A stretch of 64,000 bases of DNA, from the NCBI GenBank assembly GCA_018303405.1, contig JAGVYD010000014.1, positions 9,350-73,349 of the forward strand, in the 5' to 3' direction. The position numbers and the translations under genes were made by a program. Source of the stretch: Candidatus Woesearchaeota archaeon. Lineage in GTDB: Archaea > Nanobdellota > Nanobdellia > Woesearchaeales > JABMPP01. Within the stretch, counting starts at the first letter, position 1, and each line of letters starts with the position of its first letter. Under the pieces are notes generated by a model. That model saw only the letters and a list, made by a program, of their open reading frames with translations, searched no databases and was not told the origin of the DNA. Below are positions 7,327-44,969 of this stretch, piece after piece.

Positions 7327-7422
7327 GGGCTCCTAGCTCAGCCTGGTCAGAGCGATTGGCTCTTATGCATGGAGAAGTGCAAGGAAACCAATAGGTCGGG
7401 GGTTCGAATCCCCCGGGGCCCA
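7327..7422 (+). tRNA. tRNA-Lys(CUU) with a canonical 21-nt intron after position 37.
   Basis: Manual fold: acceptor GGGCTCC/GGGGCCC; D-arm GCTC...GAGC; anticodon stem ATTGG/CCAAT; anticodon loop CTCTTAT (CUU). A 21-nt insert lies between loop and 3' stem. T-arm GGGGG-TTCGAAT-CCCCC; discriminator A. Confidence 0.85.
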
Positions 7423-7525
7423 TGACATTTTAATAAAATCATATAGCGAATACCCGCAGACCTATCTGCGCGATAAAGCCCGCCGTTTCCTTGCAATGTT
7501 TATGCAAGAGAAAGGAACTGGACAA

Positions 7526-8341
7526 TTAATTATCCAGCGGACTTTTTATTTTGATCATTTTTGGCCTTACGGCATGAGTGTATCCTAAGGTTGTTTCCGG
7601 AGTTACATGACCAAGCAGGGATTGTACTGTGGCCACATCTTGTCCAGACTCTAGCAGGTGTGTTGCGAATGAGTGTCTGAAAATATGCGGATGGACATGT
7701 TTTCGGATTTTTGCTTTATGGCCTGCCTTTTCCACTATCATTTGTACGGATTTTGTTGTTAATGCACCTTTTCTTCCTGGAAATAACCATAACTTTTCGT
7801 GCCCACACCCTCTTTTCAGTTCTTCCACTATTCTTTGTGGTATGATGAATGGCCTGTCCTTATTTCCTTTTCCTCCCCTTACCCATCCAATGTTTTCTTC
7901 AAATGAGAAATCATTTATCCTTAACTGTGTAACTTCTCTTACACGTAGCCCTGCACCGTACATTAATGAGACCAATAATTTATGTTTTGGATTTTCTATG
8001 ACATTCAGTATTTTTTGGACTTCTTCTTTTGTCAGGTATTCTGGCTTTCTTACAGGGGTCTTGGCATATCTTATCTTTAGATAGCATGCCTTATGCAGTA
8101 TGTCTATCATCATGAATCTGAGTGCATTATGTGCCACATTTAGTGTACTTCCTGATGCCCCTCTTTCTTCCATCTTGTAAAGGAATTCTCGCACATCTTT
8201 TTTGGAAAATGCTCTTATTTCCCTGTCCTTATTTGCTAATAAGAATAATTTCACATATTGCATATATGTCTTGACCGTTCTTGGAGATAACTTCCTGCGT
8301 AGCATCTCTCTCTTCATATTATAGAGTATGTCAATAGTCAT
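7526..8341 (-). CDS. Tyrosine recombinase/integrase of the XerC/XerD/XerA type.
   Basis: 271 aa. C-terminal catalytic motifs ...HIFRHSFATHLLESGQDVATVQSLLGHVTPETTLGYTH (R..HxxR..Y). It lies next to the tRNA 3' end. Confidence 0.85.
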   Translation of the reverse strand: MTIDILYNMKREMLRRKLSPRTVKTYMQYVKLFLLANKDREIRAFSKKDVREFLYKMEERGASGSTLNVAHNALRFMMIDILHKACYLKIRYAKTPVRKPEYLTKEEVQKILNVIENPKHKLLVSLMYGAGLRVREVTQLRINDFSFEENIGWVRGGKGNKDRPFIIPQRIVEELKRGCGHEKLWLFPGRKGALTTKSVQMIVEKAGHKAKIRKHVHPHIFRHSFATHLLESGQDVATVQSLLGHVTPETTLGYTHAVRPKMIKIKSPLDN

Positions 8342-8598
8342 TTCCCCGGGAAATGCTCTCCTCTTAAAATGTGTAATCCTAAAAAATTCGGAGAATTTCC
8401 GCCCAATCCCGTAAAATCAGTCTTCACCACCCTCAAAAGAGCACACTTTTTCCTCACCAATCCCTTAAATTCTGCCTTCCCAAGCCCCATAACCCCATAA
8501 TCCTGCCTTCTTCGCATATATAGTGTTATACGCAATTCAAAAAATATTTTTCTAGATTAATCGAAAGATTTATTTATTCCTATTTTAAATATCAATGT

Positions 8599-8964
8599 AT
8601 GGCTTCAACTAAACCAAAAACTTCATCTATAGATAAGTACATTTCACAATTTCCAAAAGAGATTCAAAGGGTTTTAGAAAAGCTTAGGCAAACAATCAAA
8701 AAATCGGCTCCAAAATCTGAAGAAACAATGAGCTATGGTATACCGACTTTTGATATGAACGGGAAGCATTTGGTTCATTTTGCTGCATTTAAAAAGCACA
8801 TTGGCTTCTATCCAACTCCTTCTGGCATAATCAAGTTCCAGAAAAAAATGTCAGATTATGAAACCGCAAAAGGCTCTGTGAAATTTCCTCTGGATAAGCC
8901 TATCCCATTTGATTTAGTAAAGGAAATTGTGAAATTCAGAGTTGAAGAAAATAAATCTAAATAA
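8599..8964 (+). CDS. DUF1801 (YdhG-like) domain protein.
   Basis: ...MSYGIPTFDMNGKHLVHFAAFKKHIGFYP... matches the DUF1801 core. Confidence 0.55.
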   Translation: MASTKPKTSSIDKYISQFPKEIQRVLEKLRQTIKKSAPKSEETMSYGIPTFDMNGKHLVHFAAFKKHIGFYPTPSGIIKFQKKMSDYETAKGSVKFPLDKPIPFDLVKEIVKFRVEENKSK

Positions 8965-9101
8965 GGTTTAACGAAAAATATTTTTTGAACTCACTCCGCT
9001 ACGCTCCGTGCCGCGCTGCGCTCTCCTCCTTTCAGTCGTCGGGGCTTATAACAGCGGTTAATTGCAATGATGGCATTTGTAGTAAAAGTATATGGTTAAT
9101 T

Positions 9102-9584
9102 TTATTCTTGCAATATCCTAATCGTCTCTCTTTGCACTTTTAATATCAATTCTTTTATTCTTTTTAACTGCTGTAAATCAATGCTTGTTTCAACGCCATA
9201 AGTTGAAATTTCCCTGCTCTCTTTTACTGTTGGATTTGTGATGCTCTTTTCAACATCAAGTGTATCAAATTGAGTAACCAAGTCTTTATCCAAGTTCAGT
9301 TTCTTCTCGTTTATCAAAGTGAGCAAAACAGTTATCGTACAAGTCTGATTTCTTGACTCATGGCCATATTTGGCGAGGATTGCTAAAAAGCAGTGATATA
9401 TGGAATAAAAGCCGACATTTAAAGCCCAGTCATATATTTTCAACCTTTCAAGTGTTTGCGCTACACTATAATTATACTCTGACTTCTTAACGTGCTTTTG
9501 CGCCAAATCCAAATCTGGCTTTGTTTTTATCAGTCTTTTTGGACCTTTCAAACACCATTTTAGATGCTCGCCTATTTGCAGCAT
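9102..9584 (-). CDS. HEPN-domain protein, the putative toxin of an MNT-HEPN pair.
   Basis: All-helical 160 aa. The ...AQKHVKKSEYNYSVAQTLERLKIYDWALNVGFYSIYHCFLAIL... region is HEPN-like. It overlaps the upstream nucleotidyltransferase gene by 13 nt. Confidence 0.45.
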   Translation of the reverse strand: MLQIGEHLKWCLKGPKRLIKTKPDLDLAQKHVKKSEYNYSVAQTLERLKIYDWALNVGFYSIYHCFLAILAKYGHESRNQTCTITVLLTLINEKKLNLDKDLVTQFDTLDVEKSITNPTVKESREISTYGVETSIDLQQLKRIKELILKVQRETIRILQE

Positions 9585-10201
9585 TTTCTAACTACCTCAA
9601 CATATTTTTCAGGATTATGAAATACAAGACTCTCTGATAGTATACTATAAAAAATTTTGTCGTTTTTATTTAATGCAATATCCTTTTCTGCTATATCCAC
9701 ATATCTTATAGGTTTTTCAACTAATTCAGATTTTCTTATTTCATCCTTTATTTTTTTGATGTCGTTAGATTTTTTAGCATCATACATAAGCAAAATATCT
9801 ACATCGTTAAAATCCTTAGTTTTTATAGATGAACCAAAAATTAATCCCATTTCAATGCAGTCCTTAAATTTCTTCAAACTATGAGATACCACACTTAACC
9901 ATTTAGGGAAGTTTCTTTCTTCCAAACTCAGCATATACTCCATAAATTTTATTGCTAGCTTGTTGCCATATTCATAATAAAAAAAGACCGAATTCCCCAT
10001 GTCTTCTTTGGCTAATAGCTTTTTATCCACCAAAATATTACATAATTTATTAGCGTGAGCGTGATTTATATTCAAAATTCTAGCCAATTGCCTAGCGTTG
10101 TATCTATCCTTATAATGCTTAAACAGATAGTTGGCTATCTGAACTTCAATTTTTGTAAATTGTATGTTACTAACATCCATATGTATGCTGAAAACATACA
10201 T
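9572..10201 (-). CDS. Minimal nucleotidyltransferase (MNT) with an N-terminal wHTH, the putative antitoxin partner of the HEPN protein.
   Basis: NTase signature GSSIKTKDFNDVDIL (GS-x9-DxD). The gene order MNT then HEPN is operon-like. Confidence 0.6.
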   Translation of the reverse strand: MYVFSIHMDVSNIQFTKIEVQIANYLFKHYKDRYNARQLARILNINHAHANKLCNILVDKKLLAKEDMGNSVFFYYEYGNKLAIKFMEYMLSLEERNFPKWLSVVSHSLKKFKDCIEMGLIFGSSIKTKDFNDVDILLMYDAKKSNDIKKIKDEIRKSELVEKPIRYVDIAEKDIALNKNDKIFYSILSESLVFHNPEKYVEVVRKCCK

Positions 10202-10329
10202 AATATATAAATTTTATGATTTTAAGCCTATAATTTTTGCTTTTAGCATGAGTGTGCCCCTTTACTATTGTCCTTGTAAGTGCACAATTAACCGAAAATT
10301 TTATATATTACGTGCCCTTACAGCATCAT

Positions 10330-11268
10330 ATGGCTTATATCGAAATATTAAAACGAAATAAAAAAGAGTATTATTACCTCACAAAAAATATAAGGCTTAG
10401 TTTAAACAAATGGAAGAAGATAAGGGTGTTCTTAGGGGATAAGAAACCTTCAAAAGAAGAACTAAAAAAATATGCCCGAGAAATAGAGGATAAATCAAAA
10501 CCTTTTTCAAAAATCTCAAATTATACATATCTTTCAGAGCATGATGCAGAAACCTTGCAGGATTTAAAGGAAAGCTACACAACTTGGCTTAAACAAATTC
10601 CAAAAAGTGTCAAGGAAAAACTGAATGAGGATTTCGTAATACGTTTTACATACCATTCCAATGCAATTGAAGGCAATCGGCTTACATTAAGACAAACCGC
10701 CCTTATTCTAAAAGATAAGGTAATACCTTCTGGAATACGTGCAGAAGATTACAATGAAGCAATAAACGGAAAAGAATGTCTGGATTATATAAACTTGTAT
10801 AAAGGCGAATTAAACACAAAATTCCTTGAAAGAATAAATGGGATTCTAACAAAAAACACTGGAGTTGTTTATGGAGGAAGAATCAGATTTTTTGATGTAC
10901 AGATACAAGGTTCAACGCATGTTCCGCCACCTCATGCTGAAGTCAAAAAGCACTTGCTCAACTTCTCTAAATGGTATAGCGCAAATAAGAATAAACTACA
11001 CCCATTTGAATTAGCAGTATTGGTTCATGCAAAATTGGCATGGATACATCCCTTTGAGGATGGAAATGGCAGAACTGCAAGAACAGTTATGAATTTTATC
11101 TTAATGAAAAAGGGTTTCCCTATGTTTTTTATACCATTTGAGAAAAGAGAAGAGTACTATCAATCATTAGATATTGCCGATAAAGGAGAATATAAAGAAT
11201 ACATCTCCAGAATGCTTCAGTTAATTATAGACCAGATAAGAAGTTACGGGCACAATAAGAAAGAATAA
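10330..11268 (+). CDS. Fic/Doc-family protein (AMPylator-type).
   Basis: Canonical Fic motif HPFEDGNGRTAR, plus the upstream inhibitory helix motif SNAIEGN (S/TxxxEG/N). The start may be at 10252. Confidence 0.85.
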   Translation: MAYIEILKRNKKEYYYLTKNIRLSLNKWKKIRVFLGDKKPSKEELKKYAREIEDKSKPFSKISNYTYLSEHDAETLQDLKESYTTWLKQIPKSVKEKLNEDFVIRFTYHSNAIEGNRLTLRQTALILKDKVIPSGIRAEDYNEAINGKECLDYINLYKGELNTKFLERINGILTKNTGVVYGGRIRFFDVQIQGSTHVPPPHAEVKKHLLNFSKWYSANKNKLHPFELAVLVHAKLAWIHPFEDGNGRTARTVMNFILMKKGFPMFFIPFEKREEYYQSLDIADKGEYKEYISRMLQLIIDQIRSYGHNKKE

Positions 11269-11665
11269 TTCTTTGGATTGTGCACATACAATTACTTTTA
11301 ACAATAACTCCCCGATTCTTGCTACTATTTTTGTGAGTGTGCCCTTTGATTCTTGTCCTTAAAGTATCGCTTCGCTCTTTTGATTGGACTGTGCGCCCCT
11401 GCGTCATAGCTATCCCCGGGACATTCGTCAGTCGATCGATGCCGAGTATGGTCGACGTTTTGGCAAGGCTTGACCGACTCCGAAAAATGGGCTCTACTCT
11501 GAAGGTCTCCGTCTCATTTTTCTCCGTCCAAATTCCATAAAAAATGCCATGCATTTTTGGGCGCCAAAAACCGAGGGTTTTTAGTGTTTTTCTGCAAGAA
11601 AATTAAGTGACTGAAAACAAAAACTTTAATAAATATTCAAAGTTGTTTATAATAAAGGAGAAACT

Positions 11666-11941
11666 ATGACAAAAAAGTCCATCGCAAATGGTGTTGCGCA
11701 CAATGTGCCAGAAGATATAAAAAAAACTTTGTCTTCCAATTCAGACATCCTTGAAAAATGGAACAACCTTACTCTGATTCAACGTAATGAGTGGATTTGC
11801 TGGATTACCATAGTCAAAAAGCCGGAAACGAGGGTTGAACATATACAGCGGATGGTTGCGGAACTAAAAGAAGGCAAACGCCAACCCTGCTGTTGGCCTG
11901 GCTGCCCGCACCGCAGACCAAAGGCAAAAAAGTGGTTTTGA
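11666..11941 (+). CDS. YdeI/OmpD-associated family protein (DUF1801-related).
   Basis: ...ITIVKKPETRVEHIQRMVAELKEG... matches the conserved AKKPETRxKRI motif of the YdeI family. Confidence 0.55.
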   Translation: MTKKSIANGVAHNVPEDIKKTLSSNSDILEKWNNLTLIQRNEWICWITIVKKPETRVEHIQRMVAELKEGKRQPCCWPGCPHRRPKAKKWF

Positions 11942-12230
11942 CATACGTGGAGCACCAGCCCCTAACTTACGAAAACGTCGAGCTGGGTGAAAATGCCTTC
12001 TGATATTAGAAGGCTCGGCGGCGCCCTCTTTGCTGACCGCCGCTACGGCAATGTCTTCGTATATCACAACGGCGCGGAATCTTACTATGCCGCCAGGGCG
12101 TTCCGTGGCTCGCTAAGGGCCTGGATTTTACGCAGACAGCGAAGGTGGTAAACCTTGCTACACGCTTCAGAAAAGTAACATAGTTCTAATGCATGTGTTT
12201 AAGGGATACTGTGCGCTTTTGTTTTTCTAA

Positions 12231-15620: not shown

Positions 15621-17039
15621 ATGGTCTTGGAGCATTTTCGGCGAAAGATGAAGGCTAATCATGGTTTGCTGGAGAACACCATGATAATAGCGGTCACTTC
15701 AGTGCTTGCGAACATGTTCAATTATATCTTTTATTTTTACACTGCAAGAAAGCTTGGCCCTGAGCAGTACAGCGTCTTCGGGGCGCTGCTTTCCATATAT
15801 TTCATATTCTTCTTTCTTACGAACATAATGAACTATATTGTGATTCAATACGTCTCCTATTTCCGTGCAAAGACACAGTTTGACAAGATCAGGAGGATGT
15901 TTGACCTTACAACAAAGTCCATGACAATAGTGGGTTTCTCCATATTTCTTGCCCTGGTTATATTGAGCGCGCCAATAAGGCATTTCATAAAGCACGACTC
16001 CATTGTGCCGATTGTGTTCCTTGGGCTGTTTATCTGGGCTTATGTCATCCTTGCAACATTTTTTGGCATGCTTAACGGGAACCAGAAATTCAGGTTTCTG
16101 GGCGCCGGAAGGGTGACAGATGGTTTTTTCACCCTGGTCTTCGGCGCAGTCTTCCTCAGCCTCGGCATGGGAGTCTCAGGCGCCCTGCTCGGCCTTTTCT
16201 TTGCGGCCCTGCTTACAATCCCGTTTGTGATTGTGCCGCTGAAATTCCTCTTTTCCATCCAGCCGGCAAGGATTGGCGATGTTGGCATACTGCCTTACAT
16301 CCTGAAGTCAATCGGCCTTTCGCTTATAATTGGCATCATGCTGAATATTGACGTGATAATGGTTAAGATATTTTTTACCAGCCTGGACGCGGGCTATTTT
16401 GCAGCTGCATCGCTGATGGGCAAGATTATATTCTTTGTGTCAACAGGGATGCTCTCTGTGATGTTCCCCAAGGCAGCGGAATTGCACAGCAATGGTGAGG
16501 ACAGCAGCCCTTTGCTCAAGGATGCCTTGACCTACACTGCAACAATCGGTTTTTCCATAACCTTGCTCTACCTGGTATTCCCTAATTTTTTTGCGCACAT
16601 ACTTTTCAGCGCTGATTACAAAATAGCAAATCTGATAGGCCTTTATGCGCTGAGCACGACATTTCTTGCGCTTACAAATGTGTTTGTGATGTACAACATG
16701 GCAATCAAAAGATTTTCAACTGCCTTTACATTGCTGCCCTTTGCTGTCCTTGAGATAGTGGTCATAAGCGTTTTCCGCAGCTCGTTGTTTGTGGTGCTTT
16801 CCCTTATGTGCCTGACTATGTTCCTCGCATTTGTCTCGATTGTTTATTTCAACCAGGAGGAATTCCTCAAGATGTTCAGGAAAACAACAGGCTACAGGAA
16901 GTATCCTGTCTCGGCCTATTTGCGGCTCAAGACAGAGTCCGACAGTAATAATAACCGGCACACTTCATCCAGGAAAATCAAGATGGAAGAGCTGGATGAG
17001 TTTCTCGATTTGAGCGACATCCCGGATAAAAAAGAGTGA
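15621..17039 (+). CDS. MOP-superfamily (Wzx/MATE-like) polytopic exporter/flippase.
   Basis: 472 aa with ~12-14 TM helices and a hydrophilic C-terminal tail. The topology is typical of oligosaccharide or peptide exporters. Confidence 0.55.
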   Translation: MVLEHFRRKMKANHGLLENTMIIAVTSVLANMFNYIFYFYTARKLGPEQYSVFGALLSIYFIFFFLTNIMNYIVIQYVSYFRAKTQFDKIRRMFDLTTKSMTIVGFSIFLALVILSAPIRHFIKHDSIVPIVFLGLFIWAYVILATFFGMLNGNQKFRFLGAGRVTDGFFTLVFGAVFLSLGMGVSGALLGLFFAALLTIPFVIVPLKFLFSIQPARIGDVGILPYILKSIGLSLIIGIMLNIDVIMVKIFFTSLDAGYFAAASLMGKIIFFVSTGMLSVMFPKAAELHSNGEDSSPLLKDALTYTATIGFSITLLYLVFPNFFAHILFSADYKIANLIGLYALSTTFLALTNVFVMYNMAIKRFSTAFTLLPFAVLEIVVISVFRSSLFVVLSLMCLTMFLAFVSIVYFNQEEFLKMFRKTTGYRKYPVSAYLRLKTESDSNNNRHTSSRKIKMEELDEFLDLSDIPDKKE

Positions 17040-17054
17040 CGCAAGGGATCTTAA

Positions 17055-17218
17055 GGTGCTATAGAAAATGTAAGTCTTGCCATCGTTTATGCGAGCATTT
17101 CAATGCCACAGAAGCACATGCAAAGGAGATTGCAAGAGGAATTTGCATCTTCACGCTGAGCCAGAGCATGCGAGCTGATGGCAAGACCGAGGCGTTAGCC
17201 GAGATTTTCTACAGCGCT
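17055..17218 (+). mobile_element. MITE-like element, copy A (164 bp), with ~14-nt terminal inverted repeats and an 8-bp imperfect target-site duplication.
   Basis: TIRs GGTGCTATAGAAAAT / GATTTTCTACAGCGC. Flanks ATCTTAAG / ATCTTGAG. About 90% identical to the reverse complement of 53784-53948. Confidence 0.75.
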
Positions 17219-17261
17219 CAATCTTGAGCAAAGTTTCTATATTGGAGTCAAAAGAAAAACA

Positions 17262-18008
17262 TTATTGCTGGATTGTTTCCGTGGTTTCCACGGAATTTTC
17301 AGATGATTGGTCAGGCTGCACATCCCTTGCCTGGCCTGAGTCCTGCTGGCCCTGCCTTGGAGATGGCCTTTCAGGCATTTTTCTTTCCAAAAGCTCGGAT
17401 GGCCTCTTTGTTTCTTCACTGGCCTTGCTCAGCTCCTGGCCAGGAATTGTTTCAAGGACGCGTAGTTCAGCAATGGACAGTGGGTAGGTTTTTTTGAGAT
17501 GGTCCCTTAACGCCCTTTGGACTTTATAGTTTATGACATCCATGAACAGGGTCAGGTAATTTGATTTTGTGACAACTGCTTCCAGAAATGCAAGCGCTTC
17601 CTTTCTCAGGCTGATGTGGATTGATTTCCTTGTCTGTGACTTGGTTACGAACATGGGCTTCAGTTTCATCTTGATGCCGTCTGCAGAACTGCACTTGAAG
17701 GAATAGTCAAGCTTGTCCTTCTTTCTCCTCACAATCCTTCGTATGCTGGATGAAACAATTGAATAAGAAACAGGGTATGCTATTCCCTTTGCGCCGACAA
17801 CCTTCTCAACCCTGAACTTCAGGTTGATATTTTGGTTCTTTGGATTTCCGGTCAGGCTCATCAGGTTTGCCTGGATGTGCCTTCCCTTCATCTGGTCAGG
17901 CATTTCCAGCGGCAGCTCGCCAATGAATGTTTCGCCAAAAGTCGAATTGGTATAAACCTGGTACCAGTTTTTTCTCTTGATTCTAAGCTGTGATTTTTCT
18001 GTAGCCAT
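17262..18008 (-). CDS. rps3ae: 30S ribosomal protein S3Ae (eS1) with a low-complexity C-terminal extension.
   Basis: N-terminus ...KRKNWYQVYTNSTFGETFIGELP... matches the S3Ae signature (KxKxWYxVxAPxxFG). Confidence 0.75.
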   Translation of the reverse strand: MATEKSQLRIKRKNWYQVYTNSTFGETFIGELPLEMPDQMKGRHIQANLMSLTGNPKNQNINLKFRVEKVVGAKGIAYPVSYSIVSSSIRRIVRRKKDKLDYSFKCSSADGIKMKLKPMFVTKSQTRKSIHISLRKEALAFLEAVVTKSNYLTLFMDVINYKVQRALRDHLKKTYPLSIAELRVLETIPGQELSKASEETKRPSELLERKMPERPSPRQGQQDSGQARDVQPDQSSENSVETTETIQQ

Positions 18009-18117
18009 TTTGCCAATGAATTGGGACTAATGAACCCTTTATAAAGTTATCTGAGGGATGGCTCTGTTTTAGCAGGTGTTGCTGCCAGCATTTTCAACAG
18101 CACATAACAAAACAAGC

Positions 18118-18335
18118 TTAGCAGAAAACTTCGCCTGAAGGCTCAGGTTTTGCCATCGGCTCGCATGGGCATCTTACTCACGAGGGCAGTTTTCTCCCTG
18201 GAGCTTAACGATTTTTGGAATCGCTTAAGTGCCGAACGAGCAGAGCGAGTGACCGCACTCCGAAAACTGCTGCCTGCCTTATTTCCAGGTGCTCGCGGAA
18301 TTGATGGCAAAACGTAAACTTTCCTGCTAAGCCAC
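18118..18335 (+). mobile_element. Degenerate third copy or relative of the MITE family.
   Basis: gcagaaaacttcgcctgaaggctcaggttttgccatcggctcgcat aligns with the 5' part of the 53.8 kb copy (gtagaaaatctcggctggtgcctcggtcttgccatcggctcgcat). The 3' part (attgatggcaaaacg) resembles gctgatggcaagaccg. Confidence 0.35.
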
Positions 18336-18514
18336 AAAACAGTAAACTTTAAATATAATGCCAAAACACTAAATTAATGTCTTCTTCTCGGAGATTCTCG
18401 GGAGGTAGATGGGAAAGCAATGAATATTTTGGGCATTTGGCAACGCAATGCCGGCAAAGTTTTTGGCAACCAGGCGTTGAGATGCATTATTTATTGGATA
18501 AAGGGTTGGATTGA

Positions 18515-23782: not shown

Positions 23783-23868
23783 AAGAGGATGTTCAGCAAG
23801 AAAACATTTTATATGTTTTGAAGCATGGCACAATAAGCTTTATAAAAAAGCTGTATTTCGAAATCACA

Positions 23869-25431
23869 ATGACAGATAATGTCCATGAAAACTGCGGTGT
23901 GGCAGCAGTCCATATCCCGGACGGCTCTAAATTCCAAGGCATGGCTCCGAATTTTCTCTATAAATTGCTCATGAATTTGCAGGGCCGCGGGCAGTTGAGC
24001 GCAGGGATAACAACTTATAATCCCCTTAGGCCCCGATTGCTTGAAACCCATAGGGACCTTGGGCTTGTCACAGAGGTTTTCAAGGAATCCAATCCGGATG
24101 AACAGCTGAAAATTTTCAAGTCCCTGGCAGGCAACACAGGAATAGGCCATACAAGGTATGCGACATGCGGCGCAGATGACAGAGACAATGCGCAGCCCCT
24201 TGAAAGGACGCACGGCAGAAGGTGGAAATGGTTTTCTTTTTGCTTTAATGGGAACATTGCAAATTATTCTGACCTGAAAAAGCCGCTGGTTGAAAAGGCT
24301 GATTACCACATAATGTTTGACAATGACACTGAAATCATGATGCATTATCTTTCAAGGGAGCTTCAGGCGAAATCCAGGCCGGACATGAAAGAGGTCTTTT
24401 CCAGCCTCGCCAAAAAATTTGATGGCGCATTCAATATTGCCTTCATCAATGCAAGGGGGACGCTCATTGTGCTTCGTGACCCGATAGGCTTCAGGCCAAT
24501 GTGTTATGGCCACTATGAGGATGTCTTGCTCGTATCATCAGAGTCAAACGCCCTGGCAAATTTTGGCGTCACTGACATTAAATACCTCCAACCTGGGGAA
24601 GTCCTGCAGGTGCTGGAGGGTAAGATTGCCATAAAGCAGTTGGTGCCATCAAAAAAACAGGCAAGGTGCATGTTTGAATGGGTCTATTTCTCCAACGTTG
24701 CATCGCATTTTGACGGCAAATCAGTGTATTTGGCCAGGACAAAGCTGGGAGAAGAGCTTGCCAAGCTTGAGACTTTGCCCATTAACACAAATGAGTATGT
24801 GGTTGTTCCGGTGCCGGACAGCGCAAAACCAGCTGGGGATGCATATGCCTATGCCCTTGGCCTGCCGAGCCGTGAAGGCCTCATCAGGAACAGGTTTGCA
24901 GGCAGGACATTTATTGAAGGCCGGAGCCGCGAGGACAAGGTCAGGAACAAGTTCACTGTCCAGAAAAATATAATCGAGGGGAAAAAAGTCCTGCTGGTTG
25001 ACGACAGCATTGTGCGCGGCACCACAACCAGAAACATTGTAAAATACCTGAAAGAGGTTGGAAAGGCAAAGGAAGTCCACATAAGGGTCAGCTGCCCGCC
25101 AATTGTGGCACCCTGCTTTTATGGGATAGACATGTCCACCATAACTGAGTTGTTTGCGCCCAGGTTCAAGATCGACCCTAAAAAGCCAATTGAAAAAACA
25201 GTGCTGGACAGGATGGCAAAGGAATTGGGCGCTGACAGCCTGATCTACCAGACTATTCCTGGGCTGGCCAGGTCAATCTCGTTCCCGCAGGAAAAGCTGT
25301 GCATGGCCTGCCTAAACACAGATTATCCGACAAAGCAAGGCAATCTTTTGTATGGCACAGCCCTTAAGAATGCAATGAACGGGCAAAAGGGCAGGACATA
25401 TGAAAAGGATAAAGATAAAGGTTCGTGCTAA
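23869..25431 (+). CDS. purF: Amidophosphoribosyltransferase (PurF) with a short propeptide.
   Basis: The sequence (MTDNVHEN)CGVAAV follows an Ntn Cys. PRTase motif VLLVDDSIVRGTT. C-terminal Cys ligands. Confidence 0.75.
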   Translation: MTDNVHENCGVAAVHIPDGSKFQGMAPNFLYKLLMNLQGRGQLSAGITTYNPLRPRLLETHRDLGLVTEVFKESNPDEQLKIFKSLAGNTGIGHTRYATCGADDRDNAQPLERTHGRRWKWFSFCFNGNIANYSDLKKPLVEKADYHIMFDNDTEIMMHYLSRELQAKSRPDMKEVFSSLAKKFDGAFNIAFINARGTLIVLRDPIGFRPMCYGHYEDVLLVSSESNALANFGVTDIKYLQPGEVLQVLEGKIAIKQLVPSKKQARCMFEWVYFSNVASHFDGKSVYLARTKLGEELAKLETLPINTNEYVVVPVPDSAKPAGDAYAYALGLPSREGLIRNRFAGRTFIEGRSREDKVRNKFTVQKNIIEGKKVLLVDDSIVRGTTTRNIVKYLKEVGKAKEVHIRVSCPPIVAPCFYGIDMSTITELFAPRFKIDPKKPIEKTVLDRMAKELGADSLIYQTIPGLARSISFPQEKLCMACLNTDYPTKQGNLLYGTALKNAMNGQKGRTYEKDKDKGSC

Positions 25432-25718
25432 TTATTGTCATGATTCTTTGGCTTTGGTTTTTTGGCTTTTTCGAAAAATGCCTTTTCCATTCTCTTGAGG
25501 AATGCCACTTCAAATCCCAGAATCAGCAGGCCGAATATTAGGAAAGGCACGCCAGGTAGGACTGGGAGAAATACGCCCGTAATTCCTATCATGACCAGTA
25601 TAACGCCAATGGCAATTCCAATCCATCCCCATTTCCTTATTTTTTCAGCGTTCGATATCAGGAATCCTGCCATGCGCTTACCAAATCCCATAGGGTATAA
25701 TAAATTAACTGTTCCCAT
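25428..25718 (-). CDS. Small PGPGW-family membrane protein.
   Basis: Two TM helices with LPVLPGVPFLIFGLLILG. Confidence 0.45.
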   Translation of the reverse strand: MGTVNLLYPMGFGKRMAGFLISNAEKIRKWGWIGIAIGVILVMIGITGVFLPVLPGVPFLIFGLLILGFEVAFLKRMEKAFFEKAKKPKPKNHDNN

Positions 25719-25800
25719 GAGATATCCGCAGGGATATGCAAATCGTCATTCATAAGCTTTATAAAACCCCAATTTTTCCCATGAACCTCTAGTATCTCTC

Positions 25801-25863
25801 CATTATAGGGCATTATATGGAGTTAAAGCAATACACCTAATTGAATAGAGAACAGAAGGAGGA
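25801..25863 (+). promoter_or_regulatory. Putative thermosome promoter and RBS.
   Basis: Tandem TATA-like catTATAggg/catTATAtgg, then gaaGGAGGa 8 nt before the ATG at 25871. Confidence 0.3.
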
Positions 25864-25870
25864 TGAGATT

Positions 25871-27505
25871 ATGGCTCAGCAAATTCAGCCGATTTTTATT
25901 TTGCCGGAAGGCGCCCAGAGAAGCGTGGGCAAGGATGCGCACTCAACGAATATCATGGCTGCAAAGGCAGTTGCAGAGACAGTCAGGACAACCCTTGGGC
26001 CCAAAGGAATGGACAAGATGCTTGTGGATTCAATGGGGGATGTCACAGTCACAAATGACGGGGTCACAATTCTTGAAGAGATGAATATCGAGCACCCGTC
26101 AGCAAAGATGATAGTTGAAATTGCCAAGACACAGGAAAATGAGGTTGGCGACGGGACTACAACAGCTGTGGTGCTGGCAGGAGAGCTCCTGAAAAATGCA
26201 GAGGAGTTGCTTAACCAAAACATTCATCCAACAGTTGTTGCCAAGGGATACAGGATTGCGTCAGAAAAGGCACAGGTTATCCTGAATGCAATTTCTGAAA
26301 AGATTACAAAGGAGGACAATGACAGCCTGATTAAGATTGCCACAACGGCAATGACTGGAAAGGGCGCTGAGTATTCCAAGGAAAAGCTGGCAAAGATGAC
26401 AGTTGACGCAGTGAAGATGATTGTTGAGTCAGACGGCAACATTGATTCTGAAAATGTGAAAATTGAAAAAAGGTCAGGCGCGCCGGCTGATGATTCCATG
26501 CTTATCAAGGGCGTGCTTATCGACAAGGAAAGGGTGCATCCGGGCATGCCGCGGCAGGTCAAGAATGCCAAGATTGCGCTGATTGACAAGGAGATTGAGA
26601 TATCCAAGACAGAGATTGACAGCAAGATTGAGATAACCTCGCCGGACCAGATGCAGGCATTTTTGGACCAGGAAGAGAAAATGCTGAAAAACCTTGTTGA
26701 AAAAATCCTTTCATCTGGCGCAAACGTGGTCATCTGCCAGAAGGGCATTGATGATGTTGCGCAGTATTTCATGTCAAAGAAGGGCGTTTATGCCGTGAGG
26801 CGGGTCAGCGAATCAGACATGAAAAGGCTGGCCAGGGCGACCGGCGGAAGGGTAGTCAGCAACATACATGACCTCGATAAGTCAGACTTAGGATTCTCCG
26901 GCTCTGTTGAAGAGAAGAAGGTCGGCGATGAGCAGTACACATTCATCCAGGATTGCAAGAACCCGAAGGCAGTTACCCTGCTTGTAAGAGGCGGCACAGA
27001 GCATGTGACAAATGAGATAGAAAGGGCAATCAGTGATGCAGTAGGGGATGTTATTGCAGCCTTGAGGGTTGGCAAGATTGTGGGCGGAGCTGGTGCAGTC
27101 GAGATTGAGCTTTCCAAGCAGCTTTACAAATTTGCGAATTCCCTATCAGGCAAGGAGCAGCTGGCAGCAAAAGCCTTTGCGCAGTCACTGGAAGTCATAC
27201 CCAAGACCCTTGCAGAAAATGCAGGCTTGGACCCGATTGATGTCCTGACTGAGCTGAAGGCCGCGCATGACAAAGGCCAGAAGTGGGCCGGAATCAATGT
27301 ATTTACAGGCAAGGTCATGGATGCCATGAAAAACGGCGTAGTCGAGCCATTGAAAATCAAGACTCAGGCAGTGAGCTCAGCATCCGAAGTTGCAATAATG
27401 ATATTGAGGATTGATGACCTCATAGCAGCTGGCAAGTCCAGTGGGCCATCAGGAGGAGGGCCGCAGATGCCGCCGGGCATGGGCGGTATGGGCGGTGAAT
27501 ACTAA
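25871..27505 (+). CDS. ths: Thermosome subunit (group II chaperonin).
   Basis: Full-length Cpn60/TCP-1 signature. N-terminus [24 protein letters not shown]-terminal GGM repeat tail. Confidence 0.9.
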
Positions 27506-27816
27506 TGGGACGAATTAAAACAAAGATGATAAAGAGGCTGACAAAAAAGCTCATGAAATCACATAGTGATTCTTTCAGCGAGGATTTCGGCAAGAACAAG
27601 GCATTGACAGCGAAGTGGACGACAAAATCATCGCCCAAAATCAGGAATATCATTGCTGGCTATGTTACCAGGCTGAAGAAAAAGGGCTACCAGGAAGGGC
27701 AGGCCCTGCCAAGAGCGCCGCCTCAGCAGAAATATTCTGACAGGGGAGACATGTACGGAAGCTCTGACAGGCAAGGCAGAAGGGGCGGCAGCGGCCGTTC
27801 CAGGAACCAGCGATAA
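27505..27816 (+). CDS. rps17e: Ribosomal protein S17e with an RG-rich C-terminal extension.
   Basis: [16 protein letters not shown]...IRNIIAGYVTRLKKK matches the eS17 N-terminus. Confidence 0.7.
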   Translation: MGRIKTKMIKRLTKKLMKSHSDSFSEDFGKNKALTAKWTTKSSPKIRNIIAGYVTRLKKKGYQEGQALPRAPPQQKYSDRGDMYGSSDRQGRRGGSGRSRNQR

Positions 27817-27938
27817 TTTTGCCTGGATATTTTTTTGTTTTTCCCGGGTTTCTTTGTTTTTTCCATCTTGAGTTATCCGTTCTTTATGGCTTTTTCAGCT
27901 GTTTAAGCGCAAATTTAATATAATTGGAGTGCAATTGA

Positions 27939-28172
27939 TTGCCTATCATGCCAAGAGCGGATAAAAATAGGATAATACCGGGAGCGCCGGTTGGGAGATT
28001 GCTGATGGCAGCAGGAGCCAAGCGGGCCAGCGCAGGCGCAGTCCAGGCACTTGCAGAGTATCTTGAAGCAAAAGGCGTGGAGATAGGCGCACGCGCAGTT
28101 GAGATGGCCAAGCACACTGGAAGGAAGACTGTGCACGGGGAAGACATCAAGCTTGCTGCGAGAAAGCAGTAG
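27939..28172 (+). CDS. Archaeal histone-fold protein (HMf-like) with a short basic N-terminal tail.
   Basis: ...IIPGAPVGRLLMAAGAKRASAGAVQALAEYLEAKGVEIGARAVEMAKHTGRKTVHGEDIKLAARKQ aligns with HMfB. The N-terminal tail is MPIMPRADKNR. Confidence 0.8.
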   Translation: MPIMPRADKNRIIPGAPVGRLLMAAGAKRASAGAVQALAEYLEAKGVEIGARAVEMAKHTGRKTVHGEDIKLAARKQ

Positions 28173-28190
28173 AATTGTTGTTAGTTTTTC

Positions 28191-28472
28191 TTATTTCCTT
28201 TTCAATAGGATTTCAATGGATGACACCCTGACATTCTTGCCTTCCTTGTTCTGGAATTCCTCAGAGTCAATGTCGATTTTAATGACTTCAATCTGGCCAG
28301 TGAGAAATCTTTTTTGCGCCACTTCCACCACGTCAACGGCACGGCTGATAAATTTGCCTCTAGCCTTTACTGTGACTTCAGAAGCGTTCTTGGTCGTGAA
28401 TTGCATCACAACCCCGGTCACATAGTTCATGAAGGGCTTGCCGCCAATAAATATTGAATTGTCGCTGCCCAT
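28191..28472 (-). CDS. alba: Alba DNA/RNA-binding protein.
   Basis: ...IFIGGKPFMNYVTGVVMQF...VKARGKFISRAVDVVEVAQKRF...IEILLKRK matches Alba. Confidence 0.8.
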   Translation of the reverse strand: MGSDNSIFIGGKPFMNYVTGVVMQFTTKNASEVTVKARGKFISRAVDVVEVAQKRFLTGQIEVIKIDIDSEEFQNKEGKNVRVSSIEILLKRK

Positions 28473-28766
28473 ACTGCACCCCCTGTTAACTGTTATCCTT
28501 ATGCAGCATAGCTGAGCCAGCCGCGCCCCAATGTCTTCCATTGGTGAAAGCACTCGGTAACTTCAGCGCATATGGAGTTTATATATTTAAAAAGCTTTGT
28601 GTAAAAGATCAGGGCATAACAGCAATAAAATTCAGTCAGCATTATGGAGTGGTAGTAATAAAAATGCCCGCAATTTAAACAAAAAGAATGGCAGCTAAAG
28701 CTGGATTTTCTGCAAAATCGCAATCATTGCAAAATATTTAAATAAGCCCTGGCCTTCTGTTCAGCC

Positions 28767-29408
28767 ATGATTATAACCATATCAGGCATGCCCGGCTCCG
28801 GCAAGACAAGTGTCGCATTGTTTCTGGCAAAAAAATTCAGGCTGAAATATTATTCTGTGGGGACCATAATGAGGTCAATGGCAAGGGAGAAGGGCATCAG
28901 CGTCACAGAGATGAACAAAAGGGGCGAAAAGGACAAAAAAATTGACAGGCAGATTGATGATTACCAGATACGGCTGGGAAAGCGTGTAAAAAATGCGATT
29001 TTTGACGGCAGGCTTAGCTTTCATTTTGTCCCGAAGTCTGTCAGGATTTTGCTTCAATGCGACCCGGAAACAGGCGCCAAGAGGATTTTCAGCCAGAAGA
29101 GAAAGAATGAGAATTACTCAACGTACAGGGAAGCCATTGCATACATTAAGAAAAGGTCGGCATCAGAGCGGTTAAGGTTTAAGCGCTATTACAAAGTTGA
29201 TATTAACAGCAGGAAGAATTTTGACATCGTCTATGACACAAGCCACAATGACCAGTGGAGAAGTGCAAATGAAATTCTCAGGATGGTCGAGACTGTCAGG
29301 AAAAATAAGGCGAAAAACGCTGAGCGCAGGATGGCATCTGGAAATTCCCGAATCATGAACAGGACAGGGATCCGGCGCATCTCTGCAAGATCGGGAAGGG
29401 CAAAATAG
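28767..29408 (+). CDS. cmk: Archaeal-type cytidylate kinase (P-loop NMP kinase) with a basic C-terminal extension.
   Basis: Walker A ISGMPGSGKTSVA followed by an NMP-binding region. Confidence 0.6.
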   Translation: MIITISGMPGSGKTSVALFLAKKFRLKYYSVGTIMRSMAREKGISVTEMNKRGEKDKKIDRQIDDYQIRLGKRVKNAIFDGRLSFHFVPKSVRILLQCDPETGAKRIFSQKRKNENYSTYREAIAYIKKRSASERLRFKRYYKVDINSRKNFDIVYDTSHNDQWRSANEILRMVETVRKNKAKNAERRMASGNSRIMNRTGIRRISARSGRAK

Positions 29409-29467
29409 CCTGATGAATCGTCCTGAAATCAATAAGCTATTTAAATGATAATTTGGTTTTGGTTTCC

Positions 29468-30799
29468 ATGGCAAACATCCTGCTTATTGGCTGCGGCGCC
29501 CGGGAGCACGCAATTGCTGACGCTGTCAAGCGCAGCCCCCAGAAGCCGGTTCTTTATGCAGTGATGGCCTGGAGAAATCCGGCTTTGATTGCAATGTGCG
29601 AGGACTTTATTGTTGCAAAATACAATGATTTCCAGGCGCTTGAGCTTTTCGTGAAGAAGATTAAGCCTGAGTTTTGCATAATCGGCCCTGAGCAGCCCTT
29701 GGCAGAGGGAGTGGTTGACTTTCTCGCAGACCACGGGATTCCGTGCGTCGGCCCTACAAAAAGCCTGGCCAGGCTGGAAACCAGCAAATCATTCACAAGG
29801 ATGCTGATGGATAAGTATAAGATTCCAGGGCTGCCAAAATTCCATGTTTTTGATTCCATGGACGGGATTGCTGAATTCATCGACATGCTCGCAGAGGAAG
29901 GCAAGCAGTTTGTCATAAAGCCTGATGGCCTGACTGGCGGGAAGGGAGTCAAAGTGCAGGGCGACCACCTGAAAGGCAAGGATGATGCATTGGACTATTG
30001 CAAGGAGATTCTTGCGCAGGGCCAGGTGGTAATTGAGGAAAAGCTGGACGGCGAGGAATTCAGCATCCAATGCTTCTGCGATGGAAAGGCAGTTGTGCCG
30101 ACTCCTGCAGCGCAGGACCATAAAAGGGCTTTTGATGGTGACAAGGGGCCCAATACAGGGGGGATGGGAAGCTACAGCATGGAAAACCACCTCTTGCCGT
30201 TTCTTACACAGGATGCAGCAGACCAGGGGATAGAGATCACGAGAAGGATGGCAGCTGCGCTTTATGAGGAGACAGGCGAATTTTACAAGGGCATCATGTA
30301 TGGTGGCTATATCCTCACAAGGGAAGGGGTCAAGCTGATAGAGTACAATGCAAGGTTTGCTGACCCTGAATCAATGAATGTCCTGACTATTTTGGTCACA
30401 GATTTTGTCGAAATCTGCCGTGCAATAATAAATGAGGAGCTCGGCGATCTGGAAATTGTCTTTGCCAGCAAGGCAACTGTGTGCAAGTATGCTGTTCCAC
30501 AGGGATATCCTGACAAGCCAGCCAGGGGAGAGGAGATTTCGCTGGGCGAAAAAATCGCTGGTGTGAAAATCTACCTGGCATCAGTGGAGCAAAGCAAGGG
30601 TGACCCAAAAAAAATGGTCATGCTCGGCTCAAGGGCAATAGCATTTGTGGGCATTGCCGACACAATTCAAAATGCAGAGTACCTGGCGGAAAAAGCTGTT
30701 TCAGCTGTGCAGGGCCCGGCTTTCCACAGAAAGGACATTGGCACCACTGACTTGATTGATAAGAGAGTTGACCATATCAGGAAGATGTCGCCAAGGTAA
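29468..30799 (+). CDS. purD: Phosphoribosylamine-glycine ligase.
   Basis: N-terminus MANILLIGCGAREHAIA plus an ATP-grasp core. Confidence 0.85.
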   Translation: MANILLIGCGAREHAIADAVKRSPQKPVLYAVMAWRNPALIAMCEDFIVAKYNDFQALELFVKKIKPEFCIIGPEQPLAEGVVDFLADHGIPCVGPTKSLARLETSKSFTRMLMDKYKIPGLPKFHVFDSMDGIAEFIDMLAEEGKQFVIKPDGLTGGKGVKVQGDHLKGKDDALDYCKEILAQGQVVIEEKLDGEEFSIQCFCDGKAVVPTPAAQDHKRAFDGDKGPNTGGMGSYSMENHLLPFLTQDAADQGIEITRRMAAALYEETGEFYKGIMYGGYILTREGVKLIEYNARFADPESMNVLTILVTDFVEICRAIINEELGDLEIVFASKATVCKYAVPQGYPDKPARGEEISLGEKIAGVKIYLASVEQSKGDPKKMVMLGSRAIAFVGIADTIQNAEYLAEKAVSAVQGPAFHRKDIGTTDLIDKRVDHIRKMSPR

Positions 30800-30831
30800 G
30801 CTTGTGCCGGCAGTTAGGAAAATATCGCACC

Positions 30832-31380
30832 ATGAAAGAAAATTTAAGAAAGCATTTTCTGGAAAAGAGGAACGCGCTTCAGGAAAAGCAGATTCAGGAT
30901 TGGAGCAGAATTATCAGGGCTAACCTCGAATCCCTGCCGGAATTCCAGAGAGCCAGGAGCTGCATGGTCTTTGTCTCCAAAGGCAGCGAAGTTTTTACCC
31001 ACGATTTAATCCAGGAAAACCTGACAAGAAAAAGGATTTCCGTGCCTGCCACAACCAAGGCGCATATCATCCCGGCCGTAATCAATTATTTTGACGAGCT
31101 TAAGGAAGGCATGTTTGGGATTCTTGAGCCCAGAAAGATTGTTGAAATGGACAAAGAGGACATTGATTTGGTTATTGTCCCGGGGATTGCCTTTGATGAA
31201 ACTGGCAACAGGCTCGGCTATGGGAAGGGGTATTATGATAAGTTCCTGAAATTGGTTGGCTGCCCAAAAATTGCCCTTTCTTTTGAAATGCAGATTGCAG
31301 AAGAAGTGCCGCGGCACAGCAATGATGTCAAAATGGATATCATTGTGACAGAGCAAAGAGTTATAAAGCCTGGCAGGTAA
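30832..31380 (+). CDS. 5-formyltetrahydrofolate cyclo-ligase (MTHFS).
   Basis: ...VIVPGIAFDETGNRLGYGKGYYDKFL... is the MTHFS signature. Confidence 0.65.
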   Translation: MKENLRKHFLEKRNALQEKQIQDWSRIIRANLESLPEFQRARSCMVFVSKGSEVFTHDLIQENLTRKRISVPATTKAHIIPAVINYFDELKEGMFGILEPRKIVEMDKEDIDLVIVPGIAFDETGNRLGYGKGYYDKFLKLVGCPKIALSFEMQIAEEVPRHSNDVKMDIIVTEQRVIKPGR

Positions 31381-31459
31381 TAGACAGCAATAATAAATTA
31401 ACTATATTTAAGTTTTGGCATATTTAAGTTTTGGTGCAAGATTAAAAAGAGCGGAAAAA

Positions 31460-32119
31460 ATGGACTTGAAAACACATTCTGTCGAGCAGGCTATAATAGA
31501 CATCAGGAACGGAAAATTCATAGTAATTTTCGACCCTGAAAGGGAAAAAGAGGGGGACTTGGTCATTGCCGCCAAATTTGCCACCCCGCCAAAGCTTAAG
31601 TTTCTCATGCAAAACTGCTACCAGCAGGTCTGTGTTCCAATGACCGAGCATCTGCTGAAGAAGATGGGGATTCCGCCGATGACTTATTATTCAGAGGATT
31701 TCCACGGCTGCAGGTACGCGCTGTCATGTGATTCCAAAAAGGGAGGCACTGGCGTTTCTGCACGTGACAAGAGCCTCGTTATCCAGGACCTTGTTGCAGG
31801 CAGGCTTGAAAACCTGAGCATGCCGGGCCACACCTTCCCATTGATTGCCAGGCCTGGCGGATTATTCCAGAGGCGCGGCCACACAGAGGCTTCCATTGAC
31901 CTGCTGAAACTGGCAGGCATCAAGCCTGAAATTGCTGTTCTTGCTGAAATCATAGACAATAAGCGCGCAGAGTCAGCCACTGGAGAGGAGCTTGAGGCAT
32001 TTATCGCGAAAAATGGCCTTACAGTTGTCAAGATCCAGGACATTCTGGATTTTATGGCCAGGCCAGGCGAGCCGCAGCTGAATATCACTGCTGAACTGAA
32101 GGAAAAGCCAGCTCAATAA
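31460..32119 (+). CDS. ribB: 3,4-dihydroxy-2-butanone 4-phosphate synthase.
   Basis: ...REKEGDLVIAA...ARD...RGHTEASIDL... is the DHBP synthase signature. Confidence 0.7.
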   Translation: MDLKTHSVEQAIIDIRNGKFIVIFDPEREKEGDLVIAAKFATPPKLKFLMQNCYQQVCVPMTEHLLKKMGIPPMTYYSEDFHGCRYALSCDSKKGGTGVSARDKSLVIQDLVAGRLENLSMPGHTFPLIARPGGLFQRRGHTEASIDLLKLAGIKPEIAVLAEIIDNKRAESATGEELEAFIAKNGLTVVKIQDILDFMARPGEPQLNITAELKEKPAQ

Positions 32120-32170
32120 AACAATAAAACATATAAATACCCCTAAAATCGCATTGATTGGTGGGGAAAA

Positions 32171-33463: not shown

Positions 33464-33499
33464 ATAAGATTTATATAGCGCTGATTTCTCTCATATTGT

Positions 33500-34345
33500 A
33501 TGCCAGCCAACATAATCAATGGAAAGGCGCTTGCCGATAAAATCCGAGATAAATTGAAGGAAAAAATATCCAAGGGCAATGCAAAGCCGGGCCTTGCCAT
33601 AATCCAGGTAGGCGACAATCCTGTATCGGCAGTTTACATCAACAAGAAGATGCTCGCTGGCAACGATGTCGGCATCAACATGCAGCATGTCAAGCTTCCT
33701 GAGAATTGCAGGAATGAGGATGTGCTCCAGAAGATTGATGAGCTGAACAATTCGCCCGAGATTCATGGCATGATAGTCCAGCTCCCGCTGCCAAAGCAGC
33801 TTGACACCAATCTGGTCATGAACGCAGTTCTGCCACACAAAGATGTTGACGGATTTCACCCAGTCAATATTGGCAACCTTGCAGCAGGTTCTCCGAAATT
33901 CATTCCAGCAACAGCCAAAGGCATATTAAAATTGATTGAATCAACAGGAATACCATTGAAAGGCAGGCATGCAGTTGTTGTTGGCAGGAGCAACATTGTC
34001 GGAAGGCCGACAAGCTATCTTCTGCTGCAAAAGGATTGCACTGTCACTGTATGCCACAGGGAAACAAGGGACTTGGCCAGCCACACAAGACAGGCTGATA
34101 TCCTTGTGGTTGCAGTCGGAAAAATCGGACTGATAACAGGGAGCATGATCAAGCCAGGCGCAATTGTAATAGATGTCGGGATGAACAAGACAGAGGACGG
34201 CAGGCTTTGCGGCGATGTTGACTTCAATACAGCAAAAGATTTTGCAGGATGGATTACCACTGTGCCTGGCGGAGTAGGGCCGATGACTGTGGCTATGCTT
34301 TTAGAAAATACGTATGAGGCTATGGTGAATAATCCTTTCAAATAA
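33500..34345 (+). CDS. folD: Bifunctional methylene-THF dehydrogenase/cyclohydrolase.
   Basis: ...VVGRSNIVGRPTSYLL... Rossmann motif and FolD architecture. Confidence 0.85.
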   Translation: MPANIINGKALADKIRDKLKEKISKGNAKPGLAIIQVGDNPVSAVYINKKMLAGNDVGINMQHVKLPENCRNEDVLQKIDELNNSPEIHGMIVQLPLPKQLDTNLVMNAVLPHKDVDGFHPVNIGNLAAGSPKFIPATAKGILKLIESTGIPLKGRHAVVVGRSNIVGRPTSYLLLQKDCTVTVCHRETRDLASHTRQADILVVAVGKIGLITGSMIKPGAIVIDVGMNKTEDGRLCGDVDFNTAKDFAGWITTVPGGVGPMTVAMLLENTYEAMVNNPFK

Positions 34346-34421
34346 ACAGTATTGAATTCTGCAGGTGAAAAATAAGGTTTATAAAGAGTTCATCACTTCT
34401 AAGTAGAGAGGCAGTAATATC

Positions 34422-34937: not shown

Positions 34938-34998
34938 TGAAGGCGAATTCTTTCAGTAACTTTTATAAACCTACATTTTCTCCCGGGATTGAGCCAAA

Positions 34999-35610: not shown

Positions 35611-35636
35611 ATCACTTATGAAGGGGCGACGCTGAA

Positions 35637-44744: not shown

Positions 44745-44969
44745 TTTCCGATTTTAGTATTTTGTTTTATTCTTGGGCTTTGTCCGAAAAGTTAGTTTGG
44801 GCATCAATTTTGCGAAGTCCATTCCAGGATGGGTTAGGCATTTTTCGGGGTTGCAGAGGAGAAAAATGCAATTTGCGAGAAGCTGCAATGCTGAGCGGAT
44901 GCCCAAACCAAGCCGAAAGGCGAGTTTTCGGACAAAGCCTTATTCTAGACAAAATTTATATAACCCCTA

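Follow-up and report, generated by a model that had tools for sequence, protein, structure and literature searches.

Miniature transposons with a promoter-proximal position and a covarying fold in a Woesearchaeota-like archaeon

The window that we analysed, which is the whole 64-kb stretch of DNA, contains archaeal genes such as those for an intron-containing tRNA, ribosomal protein S3Ae, FtsZ, thermosome, Alba, Spt5 and a class I lysyl-tRNA synthetase (LysRS), and its metabolism is fairly rich for a Woesearchaeota-like genome. Exact protein matches assign the DNA to groundwater metagenomes from Rifle, and those homologues of its LysRS that bear an organism name all come from Candidatus Woesearchaeota. 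Purine and folate biosynthesis genes are found at 23818-37809, and a series of glycogen/starch genes (amylo-1,6-glucosidase, nucleotidyl transferase, GalT-like, glycogen synthase, GT4/GT5 starch-synthase-like and GH57) at 49728-59844. Next to the intron-containing tRNA (7327-7422), a tyrosine recombinase gene is located on the minus strand (7526-8341), and from there up to position 12000 the GC content is low (34-36% as compared to about 46%) and a Fic protein is encoded together with DUF1801, HEPN and nucleotidyltransferase-like proteins. The region 7327-12000 is probably an element integrated at the tRNA gene. Two direct repeats were also observed: one of 73 nt (616-688 and 789-861, 79% identity, spaced 173 nt), which looks like two tandem paralogous small genes, and one of 40 nt (58409-58448 and 58549-58588, 85% identity) that lies across the junction between a glycosyltransferase gene (57165-58424) and the GH57 gene (58552-59844).

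A covariance-model search, carried out with a model built from 20 full-length copies, revealed five members of a family of short repeats in the window, which are found in the order A, C, D, B and E (Table 1). An earlier note on this DNA had counted three copies, two of which with target-site duplications (TSD); D and E had been missed, and C is also flanked by a duplication (8/9). As the note had proposed, A and B are copies in opposite orientation, forming a 166-nt inverted pair that is 89% complementary, and carry inverted repeats at their ends (GGTGCTATAGAAAAT/ATTTTCTACAGCGCT in A, GGCGCTGTAGAAAAT/ATTTTCTACAGCGCC in B); the inner palindrome GTCTTGCCATC...GATGGCAAGAC was found as described. 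Copy C, which the note had placed at 18118-18335, does exist, as indicated by its score and by the motifs that it shares with the other copies, but its limits and strand are those given in Table 1. In particular, copy C has in common with A (plus strand) and B (minus strand) two long motifs, GTYTTGCCATC..GCGAGCA and ATGCGAGCNGATGGCAARACC, each of which has three matches in the window, whereas 0.01 are expected by chance. Relatives 97% identical to copy C are present at other loci, in L012 and L015, and relatives about 91% identical to copy D were found at L023:3745-3908, L028:842-1005 and L034:14631-14775.

Table 1. Positions of the five repeat copies, of their helices and flanking duplications, and of the adjacent promoter elements.
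Feature	Position in the window	Strand	Details
MITE copy A	17055-17218	+	141 bits, covariance model
Copy A, P1/TIR	17055-17069 with 17204-17218		
Copy A, P2	17074-17084 with 17177-17187		
Copy A, P3	17091-17096 with 17170-17175		GCGAGC/GCGAGC, tandem G.A
Copy A, P4 hairpin stem	17118-17124/17142-17148		Loop GGAGATTGCAAGAGGAA
Copy A, P5 hairpin	17188-17203		
Copy A, flanks (decayed TSD)	17046-17054; 17219-17227		GGATCTTAA vs. CAATCTTGA; 6/9, or 7/9 with a 1-nt shift
TATA-like octamer TTTCTATA	17234-17241	+	15 nt past right end of A
MITE copy C	18115-18333	-	104 bits; long form, diverged subfamily, 54-nt insertion in P4 loop
Copy C, TSD			ACAAAACAA/ACAAAACAG; 8/9, +/-1 nt
BRE+TATA (taaac-TTTAAATA)	18348-18355	+	Faces away from C, 14 nt past its sense-strand 5' end
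MITE copy D	44776-44939	+	151 bits
Copy D, TSD	44767-44775; 44940-44948		TTATTCTTG; TTATTCTAG; 8/9
BRE+TATA of the LysRS gene	44949-44962 (TATA 44955-44962)	+	BRE ACAAAA, TATA TTTATATA
MITE copy B	53784-53947	-	159 bits
Copy B, TSD	53775-53783; 53948-53956		CTATTTTCA, perfect 9 bp
MITE copy E	56761-56923	+	105 bits
Copy E, TSD	56752-56760; 56924-56932		AGTTACATA; ATTTACATA; 8/9
Copy E, promoter	56939-56946		BRE GTAAAA, TATA TTTATATA; 15 nt past right end of E

An internal 21-mer was used to scan genome and metagenome collections for exact matches. These comprised 28 metagenome loci, 3 of which (L024, L026 and L029) were chance matches that contain no element, and 9 loci from three MAGs, of which the submitters had assigned one to Woesearchaeota and two to Methanosarcinales. 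Through the covariance model, about 26 further distinct copies were identified outside the window, in the three archaeal MAGs and in many metagenome contigs. Two scans of viral contigs gave no match. The earlier note had indicated a family confined to the window, with flanking repeats due to coincidence, as the outcome that would speak against transposition; on the contrary, besides these further copies, the flanking 9-bp sequences match at no fewer than 7 positions in 27 of 31 copies (9 perfect, 11 at 8/9 and 7 at 7/9). The perfect duplications are unrelated in sequence (for example TGAAAATAG, TACCAAATC, TTTTAAAAC, GTAGTCTGA and TTTCAAACC). This frequency indicates that the duplication is 9 bp long, and neither 10 nor 8 bp, as had been stated for copies B and A, respectively; for the whole family, the duplication length, which the note had suggested to define by aligning all copies, is 9 bp. 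At copy B the duplication itself stands and is perfect, and the tenth nucleotide that matches is a G, with which the repeat begins on one side and which agrees by chance on the other. At copy A the duplication is likewise present, although decayed (GATCTTAAG/AATCTTGAG, 7/9, with boundaries defined to +/-1 nt).

A typical copy measures 161-165 nt (about 164 bp), and copies with nested modules reach 251 bp. The termini are GGCTYTGT... inverted repeats, in which 12-14 of the 14 terminal nucleotides are complementary in nearly all copies. Most family members have stop codons in all three sense frames and therefore no coding capacity, in agreement with the previous view that the peptides predicted in the open reading frame track are artefacts of the repeat. 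Some copies (L005, L007, L008, L009, L003 and L022) contain small hairpin modules nested at fixed points, such as a 35-nt module, TCCAACGAAGTTGGTGCCGAACTTTGTTCGAGCAT, between P2 and P3, or ATCAAAAATCTATAATTTTTGAATG.. after P4. A different repeat, with two long hairpins (CAAGAACCAC...GTGGTTCTTG and TCAGAATTTTCC...GGAAAATTCTGA), was observed in the window at 60945-61102, and parts of it recur separately in L028 with 91-98% identity, at 1038-1125 (beside a MITE) and at 11399-11529; it has the appearance of another family of small, mobile modules made of hairpins. The CAZRPY01 and CAZBGH01 MAGs (L001-L005, L007 and L008), labelled by the submitters as 'uncultured Methanosarcinales', carry the same MITE family as the Woesearchaeota MAG, and a thermosome gene segment of theirs (L001:669-2224) is 70% identical to that of the window. 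The 'Methanosarcinales' label of these MAGs may be wrong.

Syntenic loci that lack the element were found for copies A and D, and the covariance model detected no copy in either of them (L046 and L049). In L046, whose S3Ae is 54% identical, the gap between the convergent S3Ae and Polysacc_synt genes is 75 nt long, as compared to 223 nt in the presence of copy A. In L049, which comes from the same sample and whose LysRS is 78% identical, the gap between the ketoacyl-synthase and LysRS genes is 69 nt, as compared to 240 nt in the presence of copy D. The latter difference (171 nt) is close to the 173 nt expected from one element plus one duplication (164 + 9), and the context of the stop codon, like the spacing from TATA to ATG, is conserved; at these levels of protein identity the exact single-copy target is unreadable. 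An exact look-up of the S3Ae protein retrieved the same strain only, with both A and C present and no polymorphism. All features of MITEs that could be tested were found in this family, as the earlier note had supposed. These results support the conclusion that the repeats are genuine miniature transposons (MITEs) of a Woesearchaeota-like archaeon.

Also the statement that no transposase is present in the window was borne out. A Pfam search of all window ORFs of at least 90 amino acids showed no DDE transposase domain, the only recombinase being the tyrosine recombinase mentioned above, and scans for terminal inverted repeats (TIRs) over the window and 344 kb of loci showed no IS-sized pair of matching ends. 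The copies in the window are therefore non-autonomous, as already proposed. All true matches to the internal 21-mer, in both collections, are either MITE-sized or clipped by a contig end. A lead to the parent transposase comes from the termini. The 18-bp inverted repeat of IS903, GGCTTTGTTGAATAAATC, was verified in a Klebsiella plasmid (L048), where the IS that it delimits is 1057 bp long and carries an annotated IS903B transposase; the MITE ends agree with it at 10-12 positions out of 18, and in copy D and in the copy of L013 the initial 8 nucleotides (GGCTTTGT) match it at 8/8. IS903 generates a 9-bp target duplication. The parent transposase is thus probably of the IS5 family, IS903 group, an assignment that is a lead and not a proof, given that it is based on the similarity of 15-18 bp at the ends and on duplication length, the cognate full-length IS not having been found.

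The position of the copies with respect to promoters was analysed by considering TATA-like octamers (TTTAWATA, matching at 7/8 or better) that face away from the element. In 26 of the 31 copies, an outward TATA starts 13-18 nt (mostly 14-15 nt) past one end, a spacing shown by 10% of the intergenic positions drawn at random from the window (p about 1e-21); the remaining 5 copies have no good TATA at the expected distance. When the sequences are aligned on the TATA, the consensus reads C(-7) R(-6) A A A(-3, 95%) A N, then TTTAWATA, and is an archaeal BRE+TATA. The 9-bp target, which is G-poor, lies at about -15 to -7 from the TATA. Since it is located directly upstream of the BRE, the end of the element falls about 15 nt before the TATA and, for a leaderless mRNA, about 45 nt upstream of its start codon, and the promoter is left intact by the insertion. 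The next start codon is mostly found 27-37 nt past the TATA start, which fits leaderless archaeal mRNAs. The distance from the upstream gene varies between -2 and more than 200 nt, while that from the TATA is fixed, and a placement of this kind is unusual among the mobile elements of prokaryotes. At copy D, the TATA of the LysRS gene begins 15 nt past the element and 30 nt ahead of the ATG at 44985. After the TTTCTATA octamer that flanks copy A there is no co-oriented gene, and the S3Ae gene converges there; this octamer is possibly an orphan promoter or one that reads antisense, or else what is left of the targeted site.

Two tandem pairs of MITEs (L028:6085-6346 and L022:6530-6900) are separated by exactly 9 bp (CTGCAAGGC and GGTAGATAA, respectively), and this distance indicates that the second insertion reused the same target, upstream of one promoter, instead of entering the harmless resident copy. 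The end that faces the promoter is the right one in 15 copies, the left one in 8 and both in 3, a bias that is not significant (p = 0.21); this count rules out that it is invariably the right end that points toward the promoter, as had seemed to be the case at first. These data show that the promoter-proximal pattern is real and that insertion is not random.

On the element strand (plus for A, D and E, minus for B and C) the sequence forms five helices, named P1 to P5. P1 consists of the terminal repeats and is 96% paired, P2 of GUUUUGCCAUC and GAUGGCAAAAC, and P3 of 5'-GCGAGC-3' against 5'-GCGAGC-3', with two G-C pairs, a tandem G.A/A.G and two more G-C pairs. P4 is a central hairpin and P5 a 3' hairpin, usually also with a tandem G.A. 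Folds of single sequences beat those of shuffled ones (z between -3.4 and -4.6). In the covariation analysis of 32 distinct sequences, 97% of the cells were paired and 24 of 33 pairs were changed on both sides, a result that was reached by none of 500 shuffles, slid controls giving 26-43%. Compensatory changes were seen in every helix from P1 to P5. In copy D, for instance, P2 is changed on both arms (GTTTGGGCATC/GATGCCCAAAC), and in P3 of D and E the G.A step is kept while the flanking pairs covary. P4 occurs as 13 distinct stems, all perfectly complementary, including flips from AAAA/UUUU to UUUU/AAAA, which close a conserved purine-rich loop (GGARAUUGCAAKRGGAA). Non-canonical cells on the sense strand are G-U in 38 cases vs. 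A-C in 12, and those fixed within subfamilies are G-U, although by position the G-U excess is small (13 vs. 10).

The covariation of P1 and P2 could also have a DNA-level origin, given that a single transposase has to fit the two ends. That of P3-P5 is not explicable in this way, and we therefore infer selection on a single-stranded form, either RNA or ssDNA. Since either end can face the promoter and the element is located upstream of it, no consistent route is evident for transcription of the sense strand. A search of the window against Rfam 15 at the gathering score returned tRNA only, and at permissive E-values the region 16950-18450 gave only chance-level matches (E above 5). A kink-turn or C/D-box RNA was considered for the GCGAGC/GAUGG motifs and discarded, as the 3-nt bulge and the boxes are absent; by inspection, the tandem G.A of P3 and P5 has Watson-Crick pairs on both sides. 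The hammerhead-like CUGAUGA, guide RNAs of IS200/IS605 or IS110, retron msr-msd and casposon derivatives were ruled out by the TIRs and the 9-bp duplication. The promoter-fixed position and the covarying fold are the two most interesting properties of the family, and neither had been noticed in the earlier note.

Taken as a whole, the observations are in our opinion likely to reflect a family of non-autonomous DNA transposons of about 164 bp, belonging to Woesearchaeota-like archaea, that target promoters and keep their fold for their own propagation. According to this model, a DDE transposase encoded elsewhere, probably of the IS903 group of the IS5 family, would bind the GGCTYTGT... termini together with the conserved sub-terminal repeat GTTTTGCCATC and would insert the element by a 9-bp staggered cut. 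What is actively targeted may be either the BRE/TATA sequence or the bent promoter bound by TBP/TFB, and the fold would act in single-stranded form, as RNA or ssDNA, for the propagation of the element and not for a host function. A more detailed version of the mechanism can be put forward as a tentative possibility, in which the transpososome docks on BRE/TATA, possibly when bent by TBP/TFB, inserts about one helical turn upstream, reuses the 9-bp site and needs the single-stranded fold with its tandem G.A and purine-rich loop.

The pattern at promoters could in principle be produced by an ordinary MITE devoid of target preference, if insertions survived only when placed past the stop codon of the upstream gene and ahead of the next BRE. 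Intergenic regions are short, with the upstream gene ending 5-45 nt from many copies, insertions that break the BRE/TATA or a coding sequence would be purged, and one tenth of random intergenic positions already fit the spacing rule. Nevertheless, the observed proportion of copies exceeds this tenth far beyond chance, the TATA spacing is 14-16 nt even where 98 to more than 200 nt are free on the other side (L014 and L012), and in L028 and L022 the second insertions took the same 9-bp target though the resident MITE would have been equally harmless. We consider this explanation improbable as the only cause. Compared to survivorship alone, an active targeting of promoter DNA is the more likely cause, and some part of the pattern must be due to purifying selection, as the genome is compact.

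A stronger competitor, which we still regard as unlikely, concerns the fold, which might be a by-product at the DNA level, where P1 and P2 are transposase sites and the inner stems are palindromes derived from the ends of a parent IS. It is consistent with the inverted arrangement of P1 and P2 at both ends, as transposase sites would be, with an orientation that is unbiased with respect to promoters and neighbouring genes, and with the fact that no internal promoter is visible and no Rfam match was obtained. On the other hand, P4 and P5 are local hairpins, and protein binding to double-stranded DNA leaves unexplained why 13 unrelated P4 stems are always perfectly paired. Moreover, the GA/GA of P3 is kept while the neighbouring pairs change complementarily and not in parallel (D and E), the wobble pairs that are fixed read as G-U on just one of the strands, and among the exact 21-mer matches there is no full-length IS with the inner motif. 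A host structured non-coding RNA, or a regulatory DNA module located upstream of genes and not mobile, would agree with the strongly conserved fold, the constant length of 161-165 nt and the fixed promoter-side position. This explanation appears very improbable in view of the sequence-diverse 9-bp duplications around the copies, the terminal inverted repeats with IS-like GGC ends, the functionally unrelated neighbours (LysRS, S3Ae, a GalT-like gene and a glycosyltransferase), the syntenic relatives without the element, and the occurrence of both orientations and of tandem double insertions.

If the placement of these transposons reflects active targeting, the family would serve as a naturally occurring probe of how promoters are built in uncultured DPANN-type archaea and as a possible basis for promoter-directed insertion tools, and its behaviour would represent a safe-haven strategy analogous to that of Ty3 or Tf1. 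The covarying fold, with its strand-specific G.A pairs, suggests that in a DNA transposon nucleic-acid structure can be under selection besides the terminal repeats. At a practical level, five copies in 64 kb give rise to false ORFs and to repeats, by which the annotation and binning of such genomes can be misled. This density may be set beside that of a Woesearchaea genome which, with 105 MITEs per Mb, is among the densest in a census of prokaryotic MITEs (PMC11602168).

Archaeal MITEs, and their bulk abundance in Woesearchaeota, are already known, whereas in the literature searched we found no archaeal element that lands at one fixed core-promoter position. Like the SM-type MITEs of Sulfolobus and those of haloarchaea, the present elements are small, non-coding and intergenic, with TIRs and TSDs; a fixed BRE/TATA position and a covariation-supported fold set them apart, as our literature search returned no archaeal MITE described with either property. 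The folded repeats of bacteria, i.e. Correia/NEMIS, ERIC, RUP and bcr1 of Bacillus cereus (reviewed in PMC2229807 and PMC3184786), are also MITE-like, and their transcripts fold into long hairpins, in some cases with compensatory changes and effects on the expression of neighbouring genes. However, their ends and duplications are different (TA for Correia), they are not known to lie at a fixed promoter distance, and none is known to have the tandem G.A architecture of the present family. With IS903 of the IS5 family, the elements share the GGC termini and the 9-bp duplication, but they lack a transposase gene, reside in an archaeal host and possess a second, more conserved sub-terminal repeat and the five-helix fold.

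Promoter-tethered integration is known in eukaryotic retrotransposons such as Ty3, which is directed to Pol III start sites via TFIIIB, Ty1, Tf1 and the Dictyostelium TRE elements, and we suggest that it is the nearest functional analogy to the behaviour described here. These elements, too, insert a short, fixed distance upstream of a transcription start that TBP-family factors define, so that the gene is spared and a safe haven is gained in a compact genome. Those elements are LTR or non-LTR retroelements of eukaryotes equipped with integrases, whereas here a DNA transposon with TIRs is found in an archaeon, and tethering by TBP/TFB is hypothetical. If docking on the promoter does take place, these MITEs would be a prokaryotic counterpart of the promoter-tethered retroelements of eukaryotes.
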